Shown here: positions 2,883 to 16,100 of the stretch, piece by piece
Position numbering within the stretch: the first letter of the stretch is position 1
How the letters are laid out: each line of letters starts with the position of its first letter
Source of the DNA: Escherichia phage KEP4
Sequence record: PP047754
Direction: 5' to 3' (one strand)
Length of the DNA: 64,000 bases
Program-made: the position numbers and the translations under genes
The notes under the pieces: model-generated
Databases searched by the model: none
What the model saw: the letters and a program-made list of their open reading frames with translations, nothing else
Told to the model about the DNA's origin: nothing

Positions 2883-3704
2883 TTACACCACAGCCATTTC
2901 ACAACGAGTAGACGTGACAGAATGGCCATCTGCATCAGAAACAACACACCAATATTCGCCTTCATTTGCGGCTTCAACTGCTGTGATAACCAGGTTAGCA
3001 GTGGCGGCGGTGGCATTAGTGCCAGCATCGATAACTGACCCCGCACCCCCAGGAGTATCAGAGAAATGCCACACATAAGTGTATGGAGTTGTACCACCCG
3101 CAGCAACAACACTAAAGGTTCCGTCTTGTCCAGAAGTTACGTCTTTGGTGGCAGGTAAATCAGTCGACAGCGACAGAGCGCCTGCAACTGTAATAACCGT
3201 AGAATCTGTGTGATTCCCTTCAACCGTGACACCATAAACCGTTACAGTTCCTGAAGCCAGCAATTTGAATTTACCACCACCGACATGTACAGCTTTCGTA
3301 ATATCACCAGAATACCAATTAACGCCTTGATATGTGGCATTGGCAGGGGATACCGTCGCTAGCAATTCAACAAATTGTCCGATCTCTCCGCTGGCTGTAG
3401 CTGGAGTAATCACAAGTCCGGTGGTTAAAATGGCATTCGGATCGTGGATTTCATAAGATACTTGAAAGCCGATAGGCTTGGTGGGATCCACTTTGGTGAC
3501 ACCGTCCGCTTGTAAATTGCTCTTGGTGAGCAGAGCGTCAAGACCTTTACATTCGGTCAGGATCTCATCAGGATCTTGGTTGAGGCTGGTCTTTTGCCAA
3601 CCCTTTGCAACACCCGTCACGACATGATTGCGTTCGGTTTCCGGTTTGTTGCGGACAACTTCCGGCGCGACTAATACTGTGATTGTTGGCATGGTTTCCT
3701 CCAC
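2883..3704 (-). CDS. Ig-like (bacterial Ig/BIG-type) domain-containing protein
   Basis: 273-aa ORF rich in Thr/Val/Gly beta-strand repeats; C-terminal ANEGEYWCVVSDADGHSVTS resembles an Ig-fold strand pattern. Confidence 0.55.
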   Translation of the reverse strand: MEETMPTITVLVAPEVVRNKPETERNHVVTGVAKGWQKTSLNQDPDEILTECKGLDALLTKSNLQADGVTKVDPTKPIGFQVSYEIHDPNAILTTGLVITPATASGEIGQFVELLATVSPANATYQGVNWYSGDITKAVHVGGGKFKLLASGTVTVYGVTVEGNHTDSTVITVAGALSLSTDLPATKDVTSGQDGTFSVVAAGGTTPYTYVWHFSDTPGGAGSVIDAGTNATAATANLVITAVEAANEGEYWCVVSDADGHSVTSTRCEMAVV

Positions 3705-4063
3705 TCATCCAAATCGTTGTTCAGAGCCATCATCAGCTCATTATCTGGTTCGTATGAACCGGAACATAAATCATCTCGCCAAACTCCTAACGTCAACAGC
3801 GCTGCTTTAAGACGAGGATGTTGGTTCTTATCCGTTTTCAACACCAACATTCGGCACACGGCTTCGGTTTCAAAGGTATTGAAAAGGATAATCAATTGAT
3901 TGATAAGTACGCGAGGACTTTTCCCTGGCACAAATCTTTTCAATGATTGATTAATTAGCGAAATTCGCTGAATGTCTACCATCAAATCATCTCTTGAGAC
4001 ACCAGGGGTGATATAATGTCTTAGAGCGTACTCCATCAAATTGCTTTCGTCAACGATAGCCAT
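3671..4063 (-). CDS. hypothetical protein
   Basis: 130-aa ORF; start overlaps the end of the upstream gene. Confidence 0.5.
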   Translation of the reverse strand: MAIVDESNLMEYALRHYITPGVSRDDLMVDIQRISLINQSLKRFVPGKSPRVLINQLIILFNTFETEAVCRMLVLKTDKNQHPRLKAALLTLGVWRDDLCSGSYEPDNELMMALNNDLDEWRKPCQQSQY

Positions 4064-4095
4064 ATTGAATTATAATCAGCAGTTATACACTGGGA

Positions 4096-4509
4096 TTATT
4101 TAATCTGCAGTTTTTCAGTCAATTGCGAGATTATTTCATTACGGTCAGTCGCGTCGATACCCAGGGGTTCCGCAAGTGTTTTAAGATCATTGATATCGAG
4201 CAAAAGAAGAACTTCAACTGTAATATCGGTTGATACCACAGTACCTGGTTTCATCGGCTTACCGAATTTATCTAACCCATAACGGCGCAAAGTTCCGGCA
4301 AGTCCGGTGAGTTCCTCTAGAAGCTCCTTAGAGCCGTCTTTGTATTCACACACCCAACCGTAGTCACCAGCGTAGACAATACCGCCGTCGCCGCCCTGAG
4401 GCACGTTATCCACCACGCGTTGCAGATAACTGGGAAGTTTATTTTCTTCCTGTGCAGTGATTTCTTGAATGGTTTGGGTGTTTTCAATTTTCTTTTGTGT
4501 CTTCGCCAT
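4096..4509 (-). CDS. hypothetical protein
   Basis: ORF-track frame 4096..4605 trimmed to the internal Met (MAKTQKK...) at 4509, which has a GGAG Shine-Dalgarno upstream and removes the overlap with 4484..4783. Confidence 0.5.
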   Translation of the reverse strand: MAKTQKKIENTQTIQEITAQEENKLPSYLQRVVDNVPQGGDGGIVYAGDYGWVCEYKDGSKELLEELTGLAGTLRRYGLDKFGKPMKPGTVVSTDITVEVLLLLDINDLKTLAEPLGIDATDRNEIISQLTEKLQIK

Positions 4510-4783
4510 GATCAGTTCTCCTATAGACTGTAATATATTTACCACAACAATTGCAGCAATAAACATGCATGGAATATCCGTCGTCGTTAAAATCACAGCC
4601 GCCACAACGACAAAATAATTTCACGAACTGGTCGCCTATGACTTCTCTAGGAGGAAAATTCCTGAACGAGTATTCTCTGAGTTCACCCTCAAATTGGAAT
4701 GAATCAACAAGGAACTTTGTTTTTCGGCGCAGTGATCCAAATGCCTGTTGCTCATACACGAAGTAAACATCTCTGGTTTCCAT
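4484..4783 (-). CDS. hypothetical Cys-rich small protein (possible zinc ribbon)
   Basis: 99-aa ORF with paired cysteine clusters (CRCGGC ... CCNCCG). Confidence 0.45.
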   Translation of the reverse strand: METRDVYFVYEQQAFGSLRRKTKFLVDSFQFEGELREYSFRNFPPREVIGDQFVKLFCRCGGCDFNDDGYSMHVYCCNCCGKYITVYRRTDHGEDTKEN

Positions 4784-4794
4784 ATCAACCTCAA

Positions 4795-4822
4795 AGAAAA
4801 GGAGGCCGAAGCCCCCTCTTTT
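4795..4822 (-). terminator. hairpin terminator, probably bidirectional
   Basis: GGAGGC-CGAA-GCCCCCTC hairpin flanked by T-runs on both strands (aaagaaaagg ... tcttttatg); sits after the rIIB stop. Confidence 0.5.
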
Positions 4823-4836
4823 ATGTCAGTTCGCGG

Positions 4837-6420
4837 TTACTTGTATAGACCGTCAACATCAATAGATTTATGTTGGCGGTTGTATTCCGTAGTATAGTCA
4901 TCCAACACGAGATATTCACAGCAGCGGATTTTACTAGAACCGTAATCATCAGTGATAGACACGATGTCTTTCGGGTTCAGCTTACAACGCACAACCCGCT
5001 GGCCCAGGCTACCGAAACATTGTTTCAGATACGCCAGAGAACAAACGTGAAGACCATAGGAGCACAGGTCTTTGTTGTTATCGTTCACAAATGAGCGAGC
5101 CATCCGAACAATGGTCCCAGGAGCATTACTAACTTTTCCTGTGCGCTTGTCCATATAATTTCCGCGAACGGATTTGTATAGAATAATGTCGCCATCTTCA
5201 TGAATCTCAATGTCTGAGTATGCCATGAATTCATAGATTCGACCGGACTGAACCAGCGCGGCGCTCGGGTTTTGGAACATTTTGTCCAGGAAACGACCCA
5301 AGCGTTCCAAGTTCGGATAATCGCCTTTTAATGCCAAAGCCAAAATGCGTTTGGCAACGGAAGTTCCGGTGATATCATAGCCACCCCAGCGAACACGATT
5401 GTCTGAAAGGTCAACCATGCCTGTGGTGAATTGTTTGATGGCTTCACGCGGTTTCATCAGAGTGTACGCTGTTTTGACGTCACGATTTTTAATCGCTTCA
5501 ACAATACGGTCATACGCCTGGTGGCTCGTTGTGATCGTTTCCGGTTTACCATCAACCACGATTACGATACTTTCCGGCAAAATCATGATCTGGTGTTCGT
5601 TCAGGAACACAGACAGATCTTTTTCATTAAATGAATTCTGAGTTTGCTTGTCGCCTGTTTCTCCAACAACTGCAACAGTCTTGACCACGAATAATACGGA
5701 TGACAATGCCAGACGAAGTGTACGGCCTAAAATTACATCAAAGTAACCCACGCGCCGACGGGCATCAAGGGAACCGCGCATCGGGTATGTTTCGCCGTCA
5801 TGTTGTACACTGATTACCACGCCATCATTGACTTTGGTAACGCCATCAACCAGTGCTGTCGCCAATTCGGCCAACGGCGAAATATTTTCTTCATTGAAGC
5901 GGCTTGATCGAGTTTCTAACGGTTTCAGTTCTTCGCTTCTGAAAAGTTTGGCCTGAATAGCAGCAGAGCTATCGTAACGCATACAGATAAACACTGTTTG
6001 GTTTTCCAGGAAACGGCCAACATACCATTCTTCGCCTTCAGAATCGACAGACACCGAACCTTCCAGAACTTCATAGGTGTCGGGGATTTTCCCTTCTTCA
6101 GTCAATTCTTTAATTGGCGAAATCACGACCACGTTATTAGATTCTTTGATGATACGAACCATCAGGGCGCGGGCAATTGTTTTGGCACTGACGCCATAAA
6201 CTGATGCCAGAGAAGAATTGCTTTCACCTTTGCTGCTCTTGGTTTGTATTTCTTGAATCTGTTCAGTGGTCAGAGACTTAATCGAAGCTGGATCCACTCC
6301 CAGTTCTTTATCCGACACGCGTTGTATCATTGAGCGCGGTACGCCCAATTCACTGGCTATTGAACTTTGACTTCTGTTCTCATTCAACAGCTTGAGAATA
6401 CGTTTTTCTATAGCATTCAT
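4837..6420 (-). CDS. rIIB: rIIB-like protein
   Basis: 527-aa ORF directly downstream of rIIA. N-terminal helix-turn-helix-like segment and C-terminus (...CSYGLHVCSLAYLKQCFGSLGQRVVRCKLNPKDIVSITDDY...) match my recollection of T4 rIIB. Confidence 0.75.
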   Translation of the reverse strand: MNAIEKRILKLLNENRSQSSIASELGVPRSMIQRVSDKELGVDPASIKSLTTEQIQEIQTKSSKGESNSSLASVYGVSAKTIARALMVRIIKESNNVVVISPIKELTEEGKIPDTYEVLEGSVSVDSEGEEWYVGRFLENQTVFICMRYDSSAAIQAKLFRSEELKPLETRSSRFNEENISPLAELATALVDGVTKVNDGVVISVQHDGETYPMRGSLDARRRVGYFDVILGRTLRLALSSVLFVVKTVAVVGETGDKQTQNSFNEKDLSVFLNEHQIMILPESIVIVVDGKPETITTSHQAYDRIVEAIKNRDVKTAYTLMKPREAIKQFTTGMVDLSDNRVRWGGYDITGTSVAKRILALALKGDYPNLERLGRFLDKMFQNPSAALVQSGRIYEFMAYSDIEIHEDGDIILYKSVRGNYMDKRTGKVSNAPGTIVRMARSFVNDNNKDLCSYGLHVCSLAYLKQCFGSLGQRVVRCKLNPKDIVSITDDYGSSKIRCCEYLVLDDYTTEYNRQHKSIDVDGLYK

Positions 6421-6452
6421 CTTGTAGTTCTCACTGTGGGGTAATGGGGCTA

Positions 6453-9194
6453 TTATGCCCCGAGAATACGTTTTGAAATAGCCTTCACAAATCTAGTGGC
6501 ATCTTCAATCGCGTTGTGTGCCGAAGGCTGATATGTTGACATCATGAATTTCACCAAACGATGACATTCAACTCGGTATCGGTTTTTGGCCTTTTGCTTT
6601 TGAGATATAGTGCTAGTGACCTTTATCTCATCAAATCCTTCAGCAGTTAATTTTTCATTCAATAAATCAACAACTTGAGTTAACTGGTTACAGGCGCGGA
6701 AAAATCTCGTAGTTGAGAAAGGCATTTCTATATGATAATGTAATTCCTCAACAGCCTTGCGGAAATAACCGTACCCCGATCCAGACGGATTTCGTTTGGC
6801 CAGCATACGAACAATCTTCCATTCTTCTTCAGTGATTTGTTGTTTCGCATAACTGATGATTGCTTTTGCCCTGTGTTGATGATGGGCATAGCCATCCGTA
6901 ACTTTTCCATGGGAATCAATCAACAGCTTGGCACCATAATCAATGCGATGAGACATGATGTTTATGCCCTTGCGAAGTTTCAGGAGTTTCTTAGATTCAA
7001 GCGCCTGAAATTCATCTTTATAATGCTCAAGCAACATATCAAACACTGCGTCAATGGGGATGAATACTTCTGGGAATTTCTTCATCATCGGAACAGATTT
7101 ACGACGCGCAAGAACGATTGTTGGATGTGCTCCCAGCAAATCAAACAGGTTTTCGTTTCCATTCTCGCCGAACTTCGTTCTTTCCATCGCTTCACGCAAA
7201 TGTCCAGCCGCGGATTGTCGTAAGGTAATACCATGAATTTTATGGATACCTTCTCGGCCAGATACTTCGATATATACGATCTTTTTGCCCGAATCAATAA
7301 TATCTGAAACGGTTTTTCCATCTAATTCATAAACGCTGTCGAAGTTAAATGAATTGTAATGGAAACTAAACATCCCAGGATCTTTTTCAACGGTCGGGCG
7401 AACATATTCCATTTCATGCATGAAATAGACTTCATCCGGATTGAATAAATCGCCAAAAACCTCGATCAGTTTATCGGCAAAGACCAGGTAGTCCGGCGTT
7501 GTTTCTTGTACACCGATCCATGATTCAAAATAAGACTTCAATTCCTCATGGTTGGTAAATGATTCTTTATGTGCCGCCAGCTGATTCCGATTACTGAAAT
7601 AATTTTCATTCGGTTTGACGACGATAACGACATTGAAGTTATTGCGTGCTGTTTGTATCTTCAGGTTTCGAGCACGATTCGAGTTATCAATAATAACAGC
7701 AATTTTTGATTTAGATTTCAACCAATTTCCGACAGAGTTCACATAAATGCTGTCGTGTACTACACCGTTGTCGTGTACTTCAATTTCGTAAGGACTACCA
7801 ATAGACCGGAAAGGTGCATCCAAAGAGTAATCGCGCACGACGTCCGGCGCTCCGATATAACGGAACGTGCCTTTGTAGAAACGGTTATCTGCAGGAAATT
7901 CTCGCTCCACTAATTTACGGAAACCACTACCGAACATATCAGTCAGCTGAGTCTTTTTCATATACAACATAAGAGGACCCATTGACTCCGCTTGGCGAAG
8001 TTCATACATCTTCGCTTGCATGATATTTTCGGCCACATGCTTGAACACGCGGTTCAGGCTTTCACGAGTGAATTCGTCGTATGACAAGTCTTCGCGTGAA
8101 GGCGGTACATTCAGTTCCCCAAGTTCGAAGAAGGTATAGGAACTCGGGAATTTTTCCAGCACGGTGCATATTTCAGAGTCCAATTGGTCGAGATCTATCG
8201 GGTAAGAAACCCCGCCCATGACAGCATAGTGGATGTTGTCGGAATCTGACTTCGGTTGGATATATGTGTTGCCTACACGGTTTTCGAAGTTGATGTCAGA
8301 CCAACGGAAAGCATAACTGGCGTTTTCAACCTTCGGACGCATTGAAGGTCGCATCACTCGACCCAAACGGACCAACTCTTGTTCAAAGGCGGTAAAACGC
8401 TGATTCTTTACAGGAACTTTAACAGTCAGGCCGTTGAACTCATCAGTGTCCTCCGGTTTAGGATCACGGGTATCTAAATCCTTGGTAATGAGATCCACAG
8501 TTGGGATTCTGTCCGCATTCAGATACATCAGGAAGCGATACAGTTTCCCTTCATAGCGACTTTCTACTGTAAATGAATCAGATACCGCAAATGGGGATTT
8601 AGAACCTAGCCCAAACGCCCCTATTTGCCCGTCGTCGTCCTCTTTTGTACTATGGAAGAGTGTTGTATACAAACCAGGACCACGAATGATCTCGCCATCC
8701 TCAGCGCGGAATACCAGTACCCCATTATAATAACCAGGTGTACCAATAACAGCAGTGCTATCAGGGATTTCGTCTTCCTTCACGACGATATTACCTTCAA
8801 CCAGCACTTCATCTTCACGCGCTGTAATAGGCTCGCCGATGATCATTTCTAATGGAAGACCAACCCCATAATCTTTAATTTCCAGCCAGGGTTCCATAAC
8901 ATCCGGTAAATGTACAACAACAGGAGTTCCCTTGGGGGCAAGATGTTTGCTGTATCGTTGAGGCATAGGAGTGAGAGGAGCATAATGCGATGGCATCCAG
9001 CGTTGTTGGCGATCACGCATATTATGTGAGTCTATACCATTACACAACGTCTCACGCAAAGACGCCGCCTCTTTATATTTGTAGAGACTTGAAAATAATG
9101 TTTCAAATAATTTATCCGTCATCTTGACATTGAATGTCTGTCCGACGATGGTAGAAGAAGAGCGCACGAAATGCTCGGACTTGCGCATTTTCAT
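6453..9194 (-). CDS. rIIA: rIIA-like protein (GHKL/HATPase-type N-terminal domain)
   Basis: 913-aa ORF; N-box-like LRETLCNGIDSH, G1-like DYGVGLP, G2-like GAFGLGSKSPFAV as in T4 rIIA; conserved rIIA-rIIB adjacency. Confidence 0.8.
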   Translation of the reverse strand: MKMRKSEHFVRSSSTIVGQTFNVKMTDKLFETLFSSLYKYKEAASLRETLCNGIDSHNMRDRQQRWMPSHYAPLTPMPQRYSKHLAPKGTPVVVHLPDVMEPWLEIKDYGVGLPLEMIIGEPITAREDEVLVEGNIVVKEDEIPDSTAVIGTPGYYNGVLVFRAEDGEIIRGPGLYTTLFHSTKEDDDGQIGAFGLGSKSPFAVSDSFTVESRYEGKLYRFLMYLNADRIPTVDLITKDLDTRDPKPEDTDEFNGLTVKVPVKNQRFTAFEQELVRLGRVMRPSMRPKVENASYAFRWSDINFENRVGNTYIQPKSDSDNIHYAVMGGVSYPIDLDQLDSEICTVLEKFPSSYTFFELGELNVPPSREDLSYDEFTRESLNRVFKHVAENIMQAKMYELRQAESMGPLMLYMKKTQLTDMFGSGFRKLVEREFPADNRFYKGTFRYIGAPDVVRDYSLDAPFRSIGSPYEIEVHDNGVVHDSIYVNSVGNWLKSKSKIAVIIDNSNRARNLKIQTARNNFNVVIVVKPNENYFSNRNQLAAHKESFTNHEELKSYFESWIGVQETTPDYLVFADKLIEVFGDLFNPDEVYFMHEMEYVRPTVEKDPGMFSFHYNSFNFDSVYELDGKTVSDIIDSGKKIVYIEVSGREGIHKIHGITLRQSAAGHLREAMERTKFGENGNENLFDLLGAHPTIVLARRKSVPMMKKFPEVFIPIDAVFDMLLEHYKDEFQALESKKLLKLRKGINIMSHRIDYGAKLLIDSHGKVTDGYAHHQHRAKAIISYAKQQITEEEWKIVRMLAKRNPSGSGYGYFRKAVEELHYHIEMPFSTTRFFRACNQLTQVVDLLNEKLTAEGFDEIKVTSTISQKQKAKNRYRVECHRLVKFMMSTYQPSAHNAIEDATRFVKAISKRILGA

Positions 9195-10470: not shown

Positions 10471-10868
10471 TTTCGTTTACTCCGATTTTTATATTTCTTA
10501 GCCTGACGTTTATGTTGGGCGGCTCCATATAGGCGCGGCGGCTTTTGATAACGTTGTGACGCAATTATGTCTCTGTCATCGGCTTCTGCTTCACAATACG
10601 AAATATCTGCCTTCCGTAACTGAGCCACCGCTTGAGATACCAATGTTTTGCGTTCACTTTCTACCAGATCATCACAAATTATCATGCGTTCACCTGGTTC
10701 ACAACGACGTTTAGGAATATCGTCTACACTGATACATTCTACTTCAACACCTTTCAACTTTTCTTGAAGGATAATGGCCATAGTCCGAGCGCCGATTCCT
10801 CCTCCAATAATCGCTATCTTTCTTGGCTTGTCTGTCATGTTCTTGTCCATGAAAAGGGGATAGAGCAA
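10467..10868 (-). CDS. hypothetical protein with N-terminal dinucleotide-binding-like GxGxxG motif
   Basis: 133-aa ORF; KIAIIGGGIGARTMAII resembles a Rossmann beta-alpha-beta start. Confidence 0.5.
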   Translation of the reverse strand: MLYPLFMDKNMTDKPRKIAIIGGGIGARTMAIILQEKLKGVEVECISVDDIPKRRCEPGERMIICDDLVESERKTLVSQAVAQLRKADISYCEAEADDRDIIASQRYQKPPRLYGAAQHKRQAKKYKNRSKRK

Positions 10869-10895
10869 TAATACCCTATCCCCATTTATTGAAGA
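10858..10895 (-). terminator. conserved intergenic hairpin element (terminator-like), copy 1
   Basis: GGGGATAGAG ... CCCTATCCCC stem with AATAATA-type loop; on the minus strand it is flanked by TTCTTCAATAAA upstream and a T-run downstream. Near-identical architecture at 13845..13890. Confidence 0.45.
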
Positions 10896-11326: not shown

Positions 11327-11896
11327 TCAGCCTTTGAAGTTAATCGGAGTCTGGACACCAGAGTCAAATGCGGCCTGGGTACGGGTGTCACTCACCACCT
11401 GACATGTCTTGTCAAGATCGATACGCGGATATCCAAAGATTCCTGCTATCAGAGAACCAGGGAACTGGCCAAGTTTAGTTTCATAGATCGCACATGCGTC
11501 CAATTTTTTAGTTTGGCTAATGCGGAATTCATCCCGACCTGAGCTGATAACAACCTGAATCTCTTTGTACAAAGATGAATCAAACTGAATATTCTGTTCC
11601 TGAATCCATTGCATTACTGCTTTGGAACCGTCTGCACCATAACGGCCTTGGAAAGTATCTTTGATCACTTCCTTCAAACCGTTTTTGTACATGTCAGGAA
11701 TCTGCGCCGTCTCCTGAACTTTGAGCGTGTAGTTGCTCAGGTGGTTTTCAGAATCTTTGTTGAACTTTTTGACCTGTTGTTCAATGCGGTTGAAATCATT
11801 GAAATAGCTAACCACACTGCCAATCCCAATTACAGCAAATGCTAGAATTGCCAACCCAACGATCCAACCAATTGAAATACCTTTACGTTGTGACAT
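11327..11896 (-). CDS. membrane-anchored protein, LemA-like (tentative)
   Basis: 189-aa ORF with one N-terminal transmembrane helix (ISIGWIVGLAILAFAVIGIGSVV) then a soluble domain; size and topology fit the LemA family. Confidence 0.45.
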   Translation of the reverse strand: MSQRKGISIGWIVGLAILAFAVIGIGSVVSYFNDFNRIEQQVKKFNKDSENHLSNYTLKVQETAQIPDMYKNGLKEVIKDTFQGRYGADGSKAVMQWIQEQNIQFDSSLYKEIQVVISSGRDEFRISQTKKLDACAIYETKLGQFPGSLIAGIFGYPRIDLDKTCQVVSDTRTQAAFDSGVQTPINFKG

Positions 11897-11911
11897 CTTT
11901 ACTTCCTCTTG

Positions 11912-13021
11912 TTAAAACAAACGTTTGTAAGTGCGACCATTGTACTGCATGCGGCCTAATATGAAAACTGCGGTAAATGGGATACATCCAAACAACACGA
12001 CGATAATCACTTCCCAAGTTTTAAGATCTCGCCATTTCAGATATTCCATTTCCTTCATCTCGACTCGGTTGTATCCCTTACTGATATTGACCGCAACTTC
12101 TTGGAACACGGATATGCCCATTGGTTTCCCAGTCAATGAAAGTCCGTTACGAGAATGGAGTTCCATGTTGTTCATGCCGTCGGCAAATGACGTAGACTTA
12201 CCCCAATTAATTTTCATATCCTTTGAAATATCGGTGACTACAATAACATCGTTCTTTTTACCGCCAGACCATGCATATAGAAGTCCCTGAAAATATTCAA
12301 CAGGCTGGCCAGAAGTCACAACCCAAACGATATTAACCTGACGTGAAGCACCTAATGTTTTCAGAGTATTGTTCAGATAATCATTCCAGTAATCAACAGG
12401 AATGTCCATCCCTGACATATTCAGAACACGAGTTACTCGGTAATAATCATACACCCTCGGATATGAAGGGATATGCTCTTTGAACTTCTCGGCGAATTGC
12501 TGGTCAGATTTAGAGAATAATGAATCTTTGTTGCCCAGCACATAATTCATATATGAATGTTCACGTGCCGCAGGTTCCCCGATTTTAACTTGTGCCCAAC
12601 GCGGAGGCTCTGTAGTACCCTGACGATCAATACGGTCAATGCTCAGATCACCGACGGTTGTTAATACGTCCCAATCAACGTCATAAGAGTGCTCATAGCA
12701 TGTGCTGCAATGACGCGTTTGTGTACAAGATCGGTTATTTCCTGAACCAGAGCAAGATGTTGTGTAATAACACATACATTCATAAGAATGTTCACAACCC
12801 ACCTTATTCCGTTGCTTATCAGTTACATATCCATTCAGGATTTCCACGTCCCCAGAACTACCAAGGGAGAAAGCAGCATATAATCCCGACTGGATAAGGC
12901 AAGACAATACGATAACAATGGCCGTGGCGATCAAAGTCTCCTTTGGCTCATGGGTCTTGCGGTGATATATTATAAACAAGATGGCCAAAATTACAGGAAC
13001 CACAAACAGAAGGTAAATCAT
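11912..13021 (-). CDS. membrane protein with Cys-rich extracytoplasmic region
   Basis: 369-aa ORF; N-terminal and C-terminal hydrophobic helices bracket a domain with many cysteines (GCEHSYECMCYYTTSCSGSGNNRSCTQTRHCSTCYEH). Confidence 0.55.
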   Translation of the reverse strand: MIYLLFVVPVILAILFIIYHRKTHEPKETLIATAIVIVLSCLIQSGLYAAFSLGSSGDVEILNGYVTDKQRNKVGCEHSYECMCYYTTSCSGSGNNRSCTQTRHCSTCYEHSYDVDWDVLTTVGDLSIDRIDRQGTTEPPRWAQVKIGEPAAREHSYMNYVLGNKDSLFSKSDQQFAEKFKEHIPSYPRVYDYYRVTRVLNMSGMDIPVDYWNDYLNNTLKTLGASRQVNIVWVVTSGQPVEYFQGLLYAWSGGKKNDVIVVTDISKDMKINWGKSTSFADGMNNMELHSRNGLSLTGKPMGISVFQEVAVNISKGYNRVEMKEMEYLKWRDLKTWEVIIVVLFGCIPFTAVFILGRMQYNGRTYKRLF

Positions 13022-13622: not shown

Positions 13623-13633
13623 GATATAGGACC

Positions 13634-13825
13634 TCAGTATAATTTCGTATAAACTTGTTTAACGCCAATATCGGCAGGAGCTGTGCTCTGCTGCATATTA
13701 TAGAATGCCAAATCTGCTTGTTCTTTGTTTTCAAAATCAACTACAACTGTGTGTACTGATATTGCTTCACCCTGTCCATAAGCATAACAACGGCTGGTGA
13801 CCAATATTTTGTATTGAGGTGTCAT
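13634..13825 (-). CDS. hypothetical small protein
   Basis: 63-aa ORF. Confidence 0.35.
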   Translation of the reverse strand: MTPQYKILVTSRCYAYGQGEAISVHTVVVDFENKEQADLAFYNMQQSTAPADIGVKQVYTKLY

Positions 13826-13844
13826 AAATCAATCCTTGCAAAAA

Positions 13845-13890
13845 GAAAGGGGAACGGGCTAATAATAACCCATTCCCCTTTATTGAAGAA
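13845..13890 (-). terminator. conserved intergenic hairpin element (terminator-like), copy 2
   Basis: AGGGGAACGGG ... CCCATTCCCCT stem with TAATAATAA loop and the same TTTATTGAAGAA flank as the 10858 copy. Confidence 0.45.
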
Positions 13891-13906: not shown

Positions 13907-14074
13907 TTACTTTTTCTTCAGCTCGTCCAGTTTGGCTTCGATTTGTTCCAGGATGTCTTTACCCTTCTGAACAATCACTTCACCGTCTTGCGCGTGTTTA
14001 CGAAAGACCAGAGCGCCAGCTACGAAGCCGACAACAACGCCAGGAAGCGCGTACACCAACAGATCTTGTAACAT
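13907..14074 (-). CDS. small membrane protein (55 aa)
   Basis: Hand-found ORF below the 60-aa track cutoff: MLQDLLVYALPGVVVGFVAGALVFRKHAQDGEVIVQKGKDILEQIEAKLDELKKK, one transmembrane helix plus a charged tail. Confidence 0.4.
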   Translation of the reverse strand: MLQDLLVYALPGVVVGFVAGALVFRKHAQDGEVIVQKGKDILEQIEAKLDELKKK

Positions 14075-14110: not shown

Positions 14111-15346
14111 TCAGCGCTTCAACAAAGACATGAGGTTTACACTGGTCGACTTCGGATTGTCCTCTATCTTTCGGACGGGCATTTTCAGATTAGTGTAAAC
14201 CTCAGATGGTTCCCAACGCGTACCCTGCTGTAAATGCCATATATGTAGAGGAACACCCGTCTCAAAGAACACAGGCATCTTCCACTTCTGGACGCCAGGA
14301 ACGTGCCCTGCAGGAGCTTTTTCGCACAACAGGGTATCTGGTAGCCAGAGTGAACGGGCTTCCCATAATGCCTTACAGGAGTATTCAGGCCAAATACGTT
14401 CCATATAATCGATCTCGTCCCATGTACGCTCGGCGTCCCACCCGATGTAACGGGTATTCTTCAGTCGGAAGAATTTCTTCAGCCAACAAGCACCGGAGGT
14501 CTCAAAGTTCAGACGATTGATAAACGTGATGTGGCCAAACTCTTCAACGCATTCCTGAAACGCTTTCTCAAGGTCGGTTTCGAGTATATCACATTCTTCG
14601 TCTGTAATAGGACAACCGTTGATCTTTTTCTTCCCGTGCTTGGTCACCCAGTCGTCACGGTTTGACAAGAATGCCGCGCCGTTGCGGTTGGACTCGCTGC
14701 CATCGCGGTCACGCAGCATGAACCCAGGGACGTCGATCTCCCACATGTTGCCGAATACCATGTTCAGGGCTTCCAGGAAGTTCCAGGCGCTCAGGCGGCC
14801 AAAGTATTTCCAGGACATCGCCGTGTCCCACAGATTCGTGAATTGGTGGACAGGGATATCCAATTCAAGCATCGGTCGGAATGCTTCCATCTGAGTACGC
14901 CCAGCCAGCCAATCAATGTAGGACTGAACACACGGGATCATCTTCGACTTACGGTAACGGCAATCGGTATCGAAGCGCATACGCTCAAAGTTCAGGTTGT
15001 ACCAATCAGAAAAGCGCTGCATCTCTTCTTTGGACTGAGGAGGCACAGGGAACTCACTGTAGATTGTCCATGGACCGATGGCGTTATAACAGCAGCCCCA
15101 AAGGAACGACATCCAGATCTTGCGCTCGATCTTCTCAAGCTGTGTGATGCCTTCAGTGACTTCGATCGCATAGTCCATCAGACGCATCTGCTGGTTGTGC
15201 TCTTCGGTGTAGGACAGCGCCTCCACCCAAGCCTTGAGCAGGTACATCCGATTCTCAGGCTTGCGATAGTCAACAGCCAGGTCAATCGGGTACTTCCATT
15301 CAGCCGGGGGCGCATAGCCAGTCGGCATTTTAGAAATGTTATTCAT
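14111..15346 (-). CDS. conserved protein of unknown function; candidate DNA-base modification enzyme (tentative)
   Basis: 411-aa Trp/Cys-rich ORF clustered with a P-loop kinase, a HAD hydrolase and the DNA polymerase. No motif-level assignment was possible by eye. Confidence 0.6.
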   Translation of the reverse strand: MNNISKMPTGYAPPAEWKYPIDLAVDYRKPENRMYLLKAWVEALSYTEEHNQQMRLMDYAIEVTEGITQLEKIERKIWMSFLWGCCYNAIGPWTIYSEFPVPPQSKEEMQRFSDWYNLNFERMRFDTDCRYRKSKMIPCVQSYIDWLAGRTQMEAFRPMLELDIPVHQFTNLWDTAMSWKYFGRLSAWNFLEALNMVFGNMWEIDVPGFMLRDRDGSESNRNGAAFLSNRDDWVTKHGKKKINGCPITDEECDILETDLEKAFQECVEEFGHITFINRLNFETSGACWLKKFFRLKNTRYIGWDAERTWDEIDYMERIWPEYSCKALWEARSLWLPDTLLCEKAPAGHVPGVQKWKMPVFFETGVPLHIWHLQQGTRWEPSEVYTNLKMPVRKIEDNPKSTSVNLMSLLKR

Positions 15347-15528
15347 CCGATTTTACTCCCGAGTTCAACACGGAACGCCAGATAGAAGAAAGTGGCGATA
15401 GATACAGGACATATCACCAAGAATGGGCGCTGTTGCACCCCTTCTGTGACCATGACGCCGACCAGCGAAACCGTAAAGATAACGAACATCAACATCATGA
15501 AGATAAAATCAACCTGCTTGATTTTCAT
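15343..15528 (-). CDS. small membrane protein
   Basis: 61-aa ORF, two hydrophobic segments. Confidence 0.4.
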   Translation of the reverse strand: MKIKQVDFIFMMLMFVIFTVSLVGVMVTEGVQQRPFLVICPVSIATFFYLAFRVELGSKIG

Positions 15529-15896: not shown

Positions 15897-16100
15897 TTAA
15901 TTCCTTTTGAAACTCTGAATTATGTTATAGACGAAAGGCGTTAATAAGATAGCACCCCCCAAATAATATAACGCGTAAACGTTCAATATTTCGGTTGAAT
16001 CCAACTCAACGATGCCCAAATATTTCATGACACCGACGAGCACAGCTGTGATACACATCACCAATCCGACGAACACAAAATATTTAGACATCTGTTTCAT
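15897..16100 (-). CDS. small membrane protein
   Basis: 67-aa ORF with two predicted transmembrane helices. Confidence 0.4.
   Translation of the reverse strand: MKQMSKYFVFVGLVMCITAVLVGVMKYLGIVELDSTEILNVYALYYLGGAILLTPFVYNIIQSFKRN

Follow-up and report, generated by a model that had tools for sequence, protein, structure and literature searches.

A phage-borne pair of LemA-like and TPM-fold membrane proteins, a candidate counterpart of the bacterial LemA-TPM module

In both bacterial genomes that we examined, Thermotoga and Neobacillus, a bona fide LemA gene (PF04011; Thermotoga TM0961, PDB 2ETD) is followed directly by a gene for a membrane protein with a TPM domain (PF04536). LemA is a very large family, frequently annotated in bacterial genomes, with at least 8,000 candidates at E<=1e-5. 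The TPM fold has been defined as a central four-stranded beta-sheet flanked by four helices; LMTP1 is a PF04536 protein, and those TPM proteins that have been characterised are non-essential accessory factors of membrane complexes, found on the lumenal or extracytoplasmic side (bioRxiv 10.1101/2024.10.28.620569). Here we compare these systems with a pair of adjacent phage genes from a stretch of 64,000 nucleotides (nt) of Escherichia phage KEP4 (PP047754), hereafter the window. Both open reading frames (ORFs) lie on the minus strand, where an earlier sequence-only reading of the window had placed them: the first gene, p369, encodes 369 amino acids (aa) at 11912-13021, and the second, p189, encodes 189 aa at 11327-11896. 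That reading had also held that LemA genes pair with a membrane partner, as they do in the two bacterial genomes. We consider it moderately probable that p369 and p189 form a phage-lineage LemA/TPM inner-membrane module, most likely one complex, that is absent from the virion and serves as an accessory envelope factor. No description of a phage LemA/TPM pair was found in the literature searched.

Like the bacterial genes, the phage genes make up an adjacent or overlapping two-gene membrane module. p189 shares with LemA a length of about 190 aa, one N-terminal transmembrane (TM) helix, a helical domain and an FP....FGF-type motif, and p369, like the bacterial partner, is a membrane-anchored TPM-fold protein. 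The adjacency of LemA and TPM genes in bacteria, together with the TPM fold of p369, leads us to regard the phage pair as the counterpart of the bacterial LemA-TPM module. The bacterial association is already known, and a few phage members have been automatically named 'LemA family' or 'TPM domain-containing'. What sets the phage lineage apart is the reversed order, TPM-like then LemA-like, against LemA then TPM in the two bacteria examined; a p369 that is about 120 aa longer than the bacterial TPM partner and carries an additional TM hairpin at its N-terminus as well as a Cys/His-rich beta domain; putative disulfide pairs; and a signature motif of its own, GRYGADGSKAVMQWIQEQN, in place of the canonical LemA motifs. 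Unlike the bacterial proteins, the phage proteins also fall below the Pfam thresholds. Among other TPM proteins, TLP18.3, Psb32, LMTP1/TLP26, MOLO-1 and cg2496 resemble p369 in having a four-stranded sheet and four helices in an extracytoplasmic or lumenal position beside a membrane anchor. Those proteins are non-essential, confer fitness and act on photosystem II or the nematode acetylcholine receptor; p369 differs from them in its fused beta domain and in being anchored, as predicted, at both ends.

Direct searches of Pfam, NCBIfam and PDB sequences with p189 and p369 gave nothing above noise, and p189 has no PF04011 match even at E<=1. The relationship to LemA appears at the level of families. 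When an alignment of 53 p189 relatives (A1) was compared by HHalign with one of 36 bona fide PF04011 proteins (A3), the two matched over 141 columns with a probability of 96.7% and an E of 3.3e-10, across columns 21-162, that is, from the end of the TM helix to the C-terminal FP....FG(F/Y) motif. The top PDB sequence match of the A1 profile is LemA 2ETD, over residues 34-161, which span the entire soluble domain; its E of 0.012 is marginal. Weak Pfam LemA matches occur in 5 of the 53 relatives (best E 0.0016), and reciprocal matches of hidden Markov models (HMMs) connect the p189 family and the LemA family. The architecture is likewise of LemA type, with a short N-terminus, one TM helix and then a helical domain, and the AlphaFold2 (AF2) model of p189 (pLDDT 80, the predicted local distance difference test) is all-helical (residues 9-63, 68-82, 87-100 and 107-143).

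The LemA-like helical domain, as delimited from A1, HHalign and the profile match to 2ETD, covers aa 30-162 of p189 (11411-11809, minus strand) and includes both GRYGADGSKAVMQWIQEQN and FP....G.FG(Y/F). Only the latter, at the C-terminus, is common to the p189 family and LemA: the motifs LQRRxDLIPNLV, ENYPxLKA and GTENRI are invariant in A3 and absent from the A1 consensus, with the family-specific motif standing in their place. These profile comparisons point to p189 as a genuine remote LemA homologue, a member of the LemA superfamily that lies outside Pfam LemA as currently defined. The earlier designation of the protein as LemA-like thus holds in the sense of remote homology, although not in that of Pfam membership.

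p369 has 453 homologues, and its AF2 model has a pLDDT of 91.2 and a predicted TM-score (pTM) of 0.80. Its TPM-fold domain extends over about aa 199-328 (12038-12427, minus strand; core motif KQVNI...W-GGKKNDV) and is identified from Foldseek, BFVD and weak Pfam matches; the model places strands at 199-202, 230-236, 258-265 and 270-278, and helices at 209-227, 242-250, 286-296 and 303-316. All meaningful PDB fold matches of p369 are TPM proteins, namely LMTP1 (9h70; probability 0.99, E 2.6e-3), cg2496 (2kpt; probability 0.84) and Psb32 (8c7i). A viral homologue of full length in BFVD already bears the name 'TPM domain-containing protein' (E 1.3e-21). p369 itself has no PF04536 match; weak matches to that family occur in 14 of 64 relatives, the best at E 1.8e-4, far ahead of any other family. 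On the evidence of the model, the C-terminal half of p369 has the TPM fold. Of the families that the sequence-only reading had put forward, LemA was therefore recovered by HHalign and TPM by fold; neither the Pfam LemA nor the TPM threshold was reached, and DUF2207 (PF09972) matched neither p369 at E<=1 nor appeared among the families matched by the 64 relatives. The identity of the pair as LemA/TPM type is, in our view, well supported.

Hydropathy and modelling predict TM helices in both proteins. p189 was described at the outset as a single-pass protein, and it has one predicted helix at aa 7-29 (11810-11878, minus strand; Kyte-Doolittle maximum 2.54), with a predicted N-in/C-out orientation. 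In p369 there are three hydrophobic helices: TM1 at aa 1-20 (12962-13021, minus strand; Kyte-Doolittle maximum 2.92, with a helix at 7-20 in the model), TM2 at aa 29-52 (12866-12937, minus strand; maximum 2.15) and TM3 at aa 336-357 (11951-12016, minus strand; maximum 2.74). The picture of terminal helices around a Cys-dense domain is therefore right as to the helices at both ends and the cluster of cysteines; since three helices were found, the 'two-helix' description should be replaced by one of a helical hairpin at the N-terminus and an anchoring helix at the C-terminus. The loop before TM2, HRKTHEPKE, is short, basic and predicted to be cytoplasmic, as is the basic C-terminal tail that follows TM3. 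Across the p369 family the mean net charge is +0.42 in the TM1-TM2 loop, -1.33 after TM2 and +1.69 in the C tail, and in the p189 family the N flank averages +1.19 and the C flank -0.47. These charges obey the positive-inside rule provided that both large domains lie in the periplasm.

The cysteines point the same way. In p189, C135 and C165 co-vary without exception among 53 sequences (32 with both, 21 with neither, 0 mixed). In the 64 sequences of the p369 family the same is true of C84/C105 (54 both, 10 neither, 0 mixed) and of C90/C99 (60 both, 4 neither, 0 mixed), the second pair being lost independently of the first. Such clean co-variation argues for disulfides, two in p369 (C84/C105 and C90/C99) and one in p189 (C135/C165), and hence for an oxidising compartment. 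We infer from these sequence patterns that the large domains of both proteins are periplasmic; this orientation, and the complex of the two proteins, are each drawn from several independent lines of evidence. A cytoplasmic four-Cys zinc-ribbon reading of the p369 cluster was considered and is disfavoured by the loss of cysteines in independent pairs and by the charge bias.

The N-terminal half of p369 (aa 55-198), which the model builds from long beta hairpins carrying the Cys/His cluster, matches nothing among the searches made. The cluster occupies aa 76-111 (12689-12796, minus strand) and consists of C76, H78, C82, C84, C90, C99, C105, C108 and H111, on modelled strands 57-74, 79-91, 98-109 and 114-121; seven of the nine cysteines of the protein fall in the 33 residues of aa 76-108. 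Among the 64 family sequences C76 and C82 are invariant, H78, C108 and H111 are kept in 62, and 61 have an odd number of cysteines (7 or 5). The near-invariant residues together with the odd count suggest a possible Cys3His-type metal site or a free thiol. A metal site of this kind, the TPM domain, or both might make p369 a periplasmic enzyme acting on an envelope substrate such as a lipid carrier, a nucleotide or peptidoglycan, with p189 as its membrane scaffold. The conservation of the three cysteines and two histidines would suit that proposal, as would the Pfam family name 'TPM_phosphatase'. We nevertheless think it distinctly unlikely, because the beta domain matches no catalytic family, the metal site is itself conjectural and, according to the LMTP1 study, the TPM domain has no one function that can clearly be assigned to it (bioRxiv 10.1101/2024.10.28.620569).

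How the two genes travel among phages is the second part of the argument for a module. We searched 50,697 phage records with both proteins and found p369 in 486 and p189 in 497. By host, the p369/p189 counts are 168/166 for Salmonella, 62/62 for Escherichia, 55/54 for Klebsiella, 29/29 for Erwinia, 23/23 for Acinetobacter, 22/22 for Serratia, 22/22 for Vibrio and 19/19 for Dickeya, and among the matches listed the hosts are all Gram-negative. The phages that bear the pair comprise Ackermannviridae, ICP1, Aeromonas T4-like phages, Rak2-like and Erwinia jumbo phages, Acinetobacter Saclayvirus, and phages of Sinorhizobium, Agrobacterium and Xanthomonas. Of 40 loci that contain a p369 relative, about 30 have a p189 relative directly downstream in the same orientation; of the remainder, several are cut off by the end of the contig, and in three distant loci the genes follow the bacterial order. 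In the window the two genes are separated by a 15-nt spacer (11897-11911, minus strand) that contains the Shine-Dalgarno-like AAGAGGAAG and holds the ribosome-binding site of p189, with AACAAGAGGAAGTAAAG upstream of the ATG; in other loci the genes are 0-50 nt apart or overlap. The start of p369 itself overlaps the stop of the gene upstream. Clustering of same-strand neighbours across 41 loci revealed no recurrent third family. A conserved third gene was also rejected as a candidate on direct comparison, the genes upstream of p369 in ICP1, phiAbaA1, MadMel and SFP10 being unrelated.

p369 matches PHROG 2087 (E 2.7e-167) and p189 matches PHROG 1383 (E 8.4e-88), full length; because both matches lie below 1e-87 and each protein has hundreds of homologues, these are genes and not chance ORFs. 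In one metagenomic phage contig the two are fused head to tail (P0241), with no stop between them, and the fusion is real at the DNA level. Such a protein is topologically possible only if the C-terminus of p369 and the N-terminus of p189 share one side of the membrane, in line with the same-side orientation proposed above. The contig that carries the fusion (L051) also encodes, at 4548-5141, about 2 kb downstream, a homologue of the anti-Gabija protein Gad2 (PF26128), so that the module there sits among counter-defence genes.

Some relatives depart from this arrangement. Fifteen records of Prevotella Lak megaphages (among them MK250017, MK250025 and MK250029) contain a p189-like region matching query aa 60-186 at 31-34% identity, and Prevotella phages are not among the main p369 matches; the Lak gene may be LemA-like without a TPM partner, or with a very divergent one. 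One contig (L021) carries two p369 paralogues, at 1092-2198 and 3920-5011, and no detectable p189 gene. On a metagenome-assembled genome (MAG) contig assigned to Candidatus Kaiserbacteria (L016), a phage-type pair at 3920-5604 is followed, 2 kb downstream, by a bona fide LemA at 7494-8054 (196 bits with the A3 HMM). Many further matches fall on MAG contigs of the Candidate Phyla Radiation (CPR), which raises the question whether these contigs are phages of CPR bacteria.

The homology of both proteins, at superfamily level, to the components of a bacterial operon invites the explanation that a host LemA-TPM operon was recently captured with its cellular function retained. The sequence-only reading had likewise suggested a captured host envelope module. 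We regard a recent capture as very improbable. The divergence takes both proteins below the Pfam thresholds, almost all loci have the reverse of the bacterial gene order, GRYGADGSKAVMQWIQEQN replaces the canonical LemA motifs, and p369 has gained a TM hairpin and a Cys/His beta domain. In addition, the pair is spread over many phage families and more than 1,000 clusters at 50% identity (the p189 family profile alone yields 1,404 representatives at that level), against only 37 loci with p369 relatives among 185,579 species genomes, mostly on MAG contigs that may be viral. The two isolate loci, in Achromobacter and Variovorax, which may be prophage or cellular, have as neighbours RecA, an MscS-like gene and many uncharacterised genes. 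The distribution indicates a deep phage-borne lineage that is rare in cellular genomes. What stands of the captured-module proposal is the counterpart relationship to LemA/TPM, and an ancient capture of a host module is possible.

The ORFs of p369 and p189 are, respectively, SFP_0195 and SFP_0196 of Salmonella phage SFP10 (Kuttervirus, Ackermannviridae), with 100% identity over the region tested, and that record labels SFP_0195 'hypothetical protein' and SFP_0196 'virion structural protein'. The second label traces to Vi01_204 in the record of phage ViI (NC_015296). It is repeated in CBA120 (orf254), SFP10 and others, takes the form 'putative structural protein' in Erwinia Agricanvirus phages and recurs in PHROG 1383, all of which concern the same protein family as p189. 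If the label were taken at its word, p189 would be a genuine virion structural protein, for example a membrane-inserting component of an ejection apparatus or channel, and p369 its assembly partner. Virion proteomics argues otherwise. In Sajous1 the pair corresponds to gp97/gp96, and neither appears in the mass spectrometry table of CsCl-purified virions, in which contaminants detected by a single spectrum, such as RIIB, are listed (PMC10892097); the 39 proteins of the LIMEstone1 virion list go no further than ORF174, and the pair lies well beyond that point (PMC3296691). The genes also lie outside the structural modules, among replication, modification and rII genes here and beside ribonucleotide reductase, thymidylate synthase and dihydrofolate reductase genes in phiAbaA1. 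A strongly hydrophobic TM helix and a putative periplasmic disulfide fit a virion component poorly, most ICP1 isolates have no such gene, and most of the labels were probably propagated from a single record. A structural role is thus quite unlikely, and the label 'virion structural protein' is probably wrong for the p189 family. It should probably read 'LemA-like inner-membrane protein' instead, as should the 'major capsid protein' of some records; the latter label, given to the p189 orthologues of MH523359 (LPST94) and Pectobacterium phage DU_PP_V (P0029), is plainly mistaken.

The ICP1 phages show that a phage can do without the pair. About 8-9 of 82 ICP1-type genomes (~10%) carry the segment that contains it, whereas in reference ICP1 (L050) both genes are absent, unrelated small ORFs occupy the site and no HMM match is found. 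Since most isolates do not have it, the module is dispensable and exchangeable in ICP1. Where present, it lies within an operon whose record annotates a sigma-70-type promoter. Relative to the reference, ICP1 2017_DRC_74 (L002) differs at 3405-7517, in a stretch of some 4 kb that lies downstream of ORF40; the 130-kb isolates of 2017 have the pair and about six other genes where reference ICP1 has ORF39-31, forming a variable early-operon cassette.

Taking these observations together, we propose the following model. p369 would be anchored in the host inner membrane by its N-terminal helical hairpin and its C-terminal helix, which would keep a disulfide-stapled Cys/His beta domain and the TPM-fold domain close to the membrane on its periplasmic side. 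p189 would be anchored by its one N-terminal helix and would present a LemA-type helical bundle with one disulfide on the same side as the p369 domains. The two proteins would be co-translated from adjacent cistrons and most likely assemble into one complex, made during infection from a non-structural gene block and probably not incorporated into the virion. Its most likely role, as we conceive it, would be that of an accessory fitness factor that acts from the periplasmic side of the inner membrane and, by analogy with characterised TPM proteins, binds and modulates a membrane complex. Our favoured guess is protection or control of the infected cell's envelope, through exclusion of superinfecting phage or of membrane-acting abortive-infection effectors; alternatively, it may preserve membrane integrity until lysis. 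Each of these roles (exclusion, a guard against abortive infection, control of envelope integrity) is a reasoned guess, as is the use in host takeover or exclusion that the sequence-only reading had thought possible. A more specific and doubtful version is that the pair is an unrecognised phage-specific, periplasm-facing envelope-control complex, common among large virulent phages of Gram-negative hosts, in which a LemA-type bundle cooperates with a doubly anchored TPM protein whose disulfide-stapled Cys/His beta domain, possibly metal-binding, senses or blocks periplasmic arrivals, for instance the DNA or proteins of a superinfecting phage or a membrane-acting abortive-infection effector.

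Functional parallels exist in T4, where Imm and Sp (superinfection exclusion) and holin T with antiholin RI are small inner-membrane proteins with periplasmic domains, encoded by non-structural genes and acting on the envelope. The parallel is one of function, as no sequence or fold similarity was detected and the T4 genes, unlike those of p369 and p189, do not form a conserved neighbouring pair. T and RI work by way of their periplasmic domains, and one could imagine p369 and p189 as a comparable holin/antiholin-like couple that senses superinfection and sets the timing of lysis, or as part of the lysis machinery itself. In favour of this, the two proteins sit in the membrane with large domains predicted to be periplasmic, rIIA is a few kb away in Kuttervirus, and the p369 orthologue of ViI, Vi01_203 (L048), bears the gene name 'host lysis protein', with the product 'conserved uncharacterised protein'; no basis for that gene name was found. 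A role in lysis is unlikely in our estimation, since neither T4 T or RI nor any other holin is among the top 50 Foldseek PDB matches of either model, holin Pfam families are touched by only two members each, at E above 0.007, no endolysin or spanin is adjacent in the contexts examined, and most ICP1 isolates, which do not have the pair, still lyse. PADLOC defence models returned nothing for p369 and, for p189, weak coiled-coil-type noise that was also obtained with a bona fide LemA control.

Several results weigh against an accessory LemA/TPM module as proposed here. Neither p189 nor p369 reaches its Pfam gathering threshold. Although 2ETD is the highest-probability Foldseek match of the p189 model (0.63), the fold match between p189 and LemA is not significant (E 0.3, TM-scores 0.32-0.38). 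For p369 the Foldseek TM-scores are modest, at 0.44-0.48 normalised to the target, and a PDB search with the family profile recovers no TPM chain. Aligned by HHalign with the TPM partner of Thermotoga LemA, the p369 family matches over 46 columns, covering the core motif only (E 9e-4), and with the second bacterial TPM partner it gives no match; because these results are so weak, we make no claim of sequence homology between p369 and the bacterial TPM partners. The ViI record does label the p189 orthologue (Vi01_204) 'virion structural protein', presumably on the strength of mass spectrometry of ViI virions. The fusion P0241 is known from a single contig, and an internal Shine-Dalgarno sequence persists at its junction; the loss of a stop codon or a sequencing error could account for it, and we treat it as weak support. 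The pair is kept in every Ackermannviridae record matched and is intact in two genome-reduced selz mutants, and may therefore matter more in these phages than 'accessory' implies. Finally, no functional study of bacterial LemA was found in the literature searched.

The phage pair offers a tractable way into LemA, being a strict two-gene unit found in about 490 sequenced phages of many families. Because ICP1 isolates with and without the pair occur naturally, their phenotypes can be compared directly. If envelope control or exclusion proves to be the function, the pair would take its place beside rII, Imm/Sp and RI/T as one of the membrane-level devices with which large lytic phages control infection, and an envelope-control complex in phages would also reveal the role of the bacterial LemA-TPM module.

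The same-strand block around the pair in the window contains genes for rIIA, an amino acid:DNA transferase, guanylate kinase and DNA polymerase. A 913-aa RIIA homologue at 6453-9194 (minus strand), with a full-length match to PHROG 3661, lies about 2 kb downstream of the pair. Upstream, a 411-aa protein at 14111-15346 (minus strand) matches Pfam PF18724, 'Amino acid:DNA transferase', at E 2.8e-61; the protein is the thymidine-hypermodifying enzyme characteristic of ViI-like phages. The pair belongs to a block of six genes flanked on either side by a strong terminator-like hairpin on the minus strand: one upstream at 13846-13881 (T-rich tail after a 16-bp stem that has 7 GC pairs) and one downstream at 10856-10883 (12-bp stem with 6 GC pairs), each recognised at the level of consensus. 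Sigma-70-like sites are no commoner than in shuffled sequence, the T4 late motif TATAAATA occurs once in the 64 kb, which is not above chance, and the literature searched contained no usable Ackermannviridae transcriptome. Just upstream of the block is a 63-aa gene (13634-13825) that is missing, within a difference spanning window positions 13628-13833, from the most reduced selz mutant (L046, selz_4t1), in which the pair is intact. Three small ORFs on the minus strand at 13907-14074, 15343-15528 and 15897-16100 (55, 61 and 67 aa) contain strongly hydrophobic stretches, and two of the three carry membrane-protein annotation in SFP10; the block is therefore rich in small membrane proteins.

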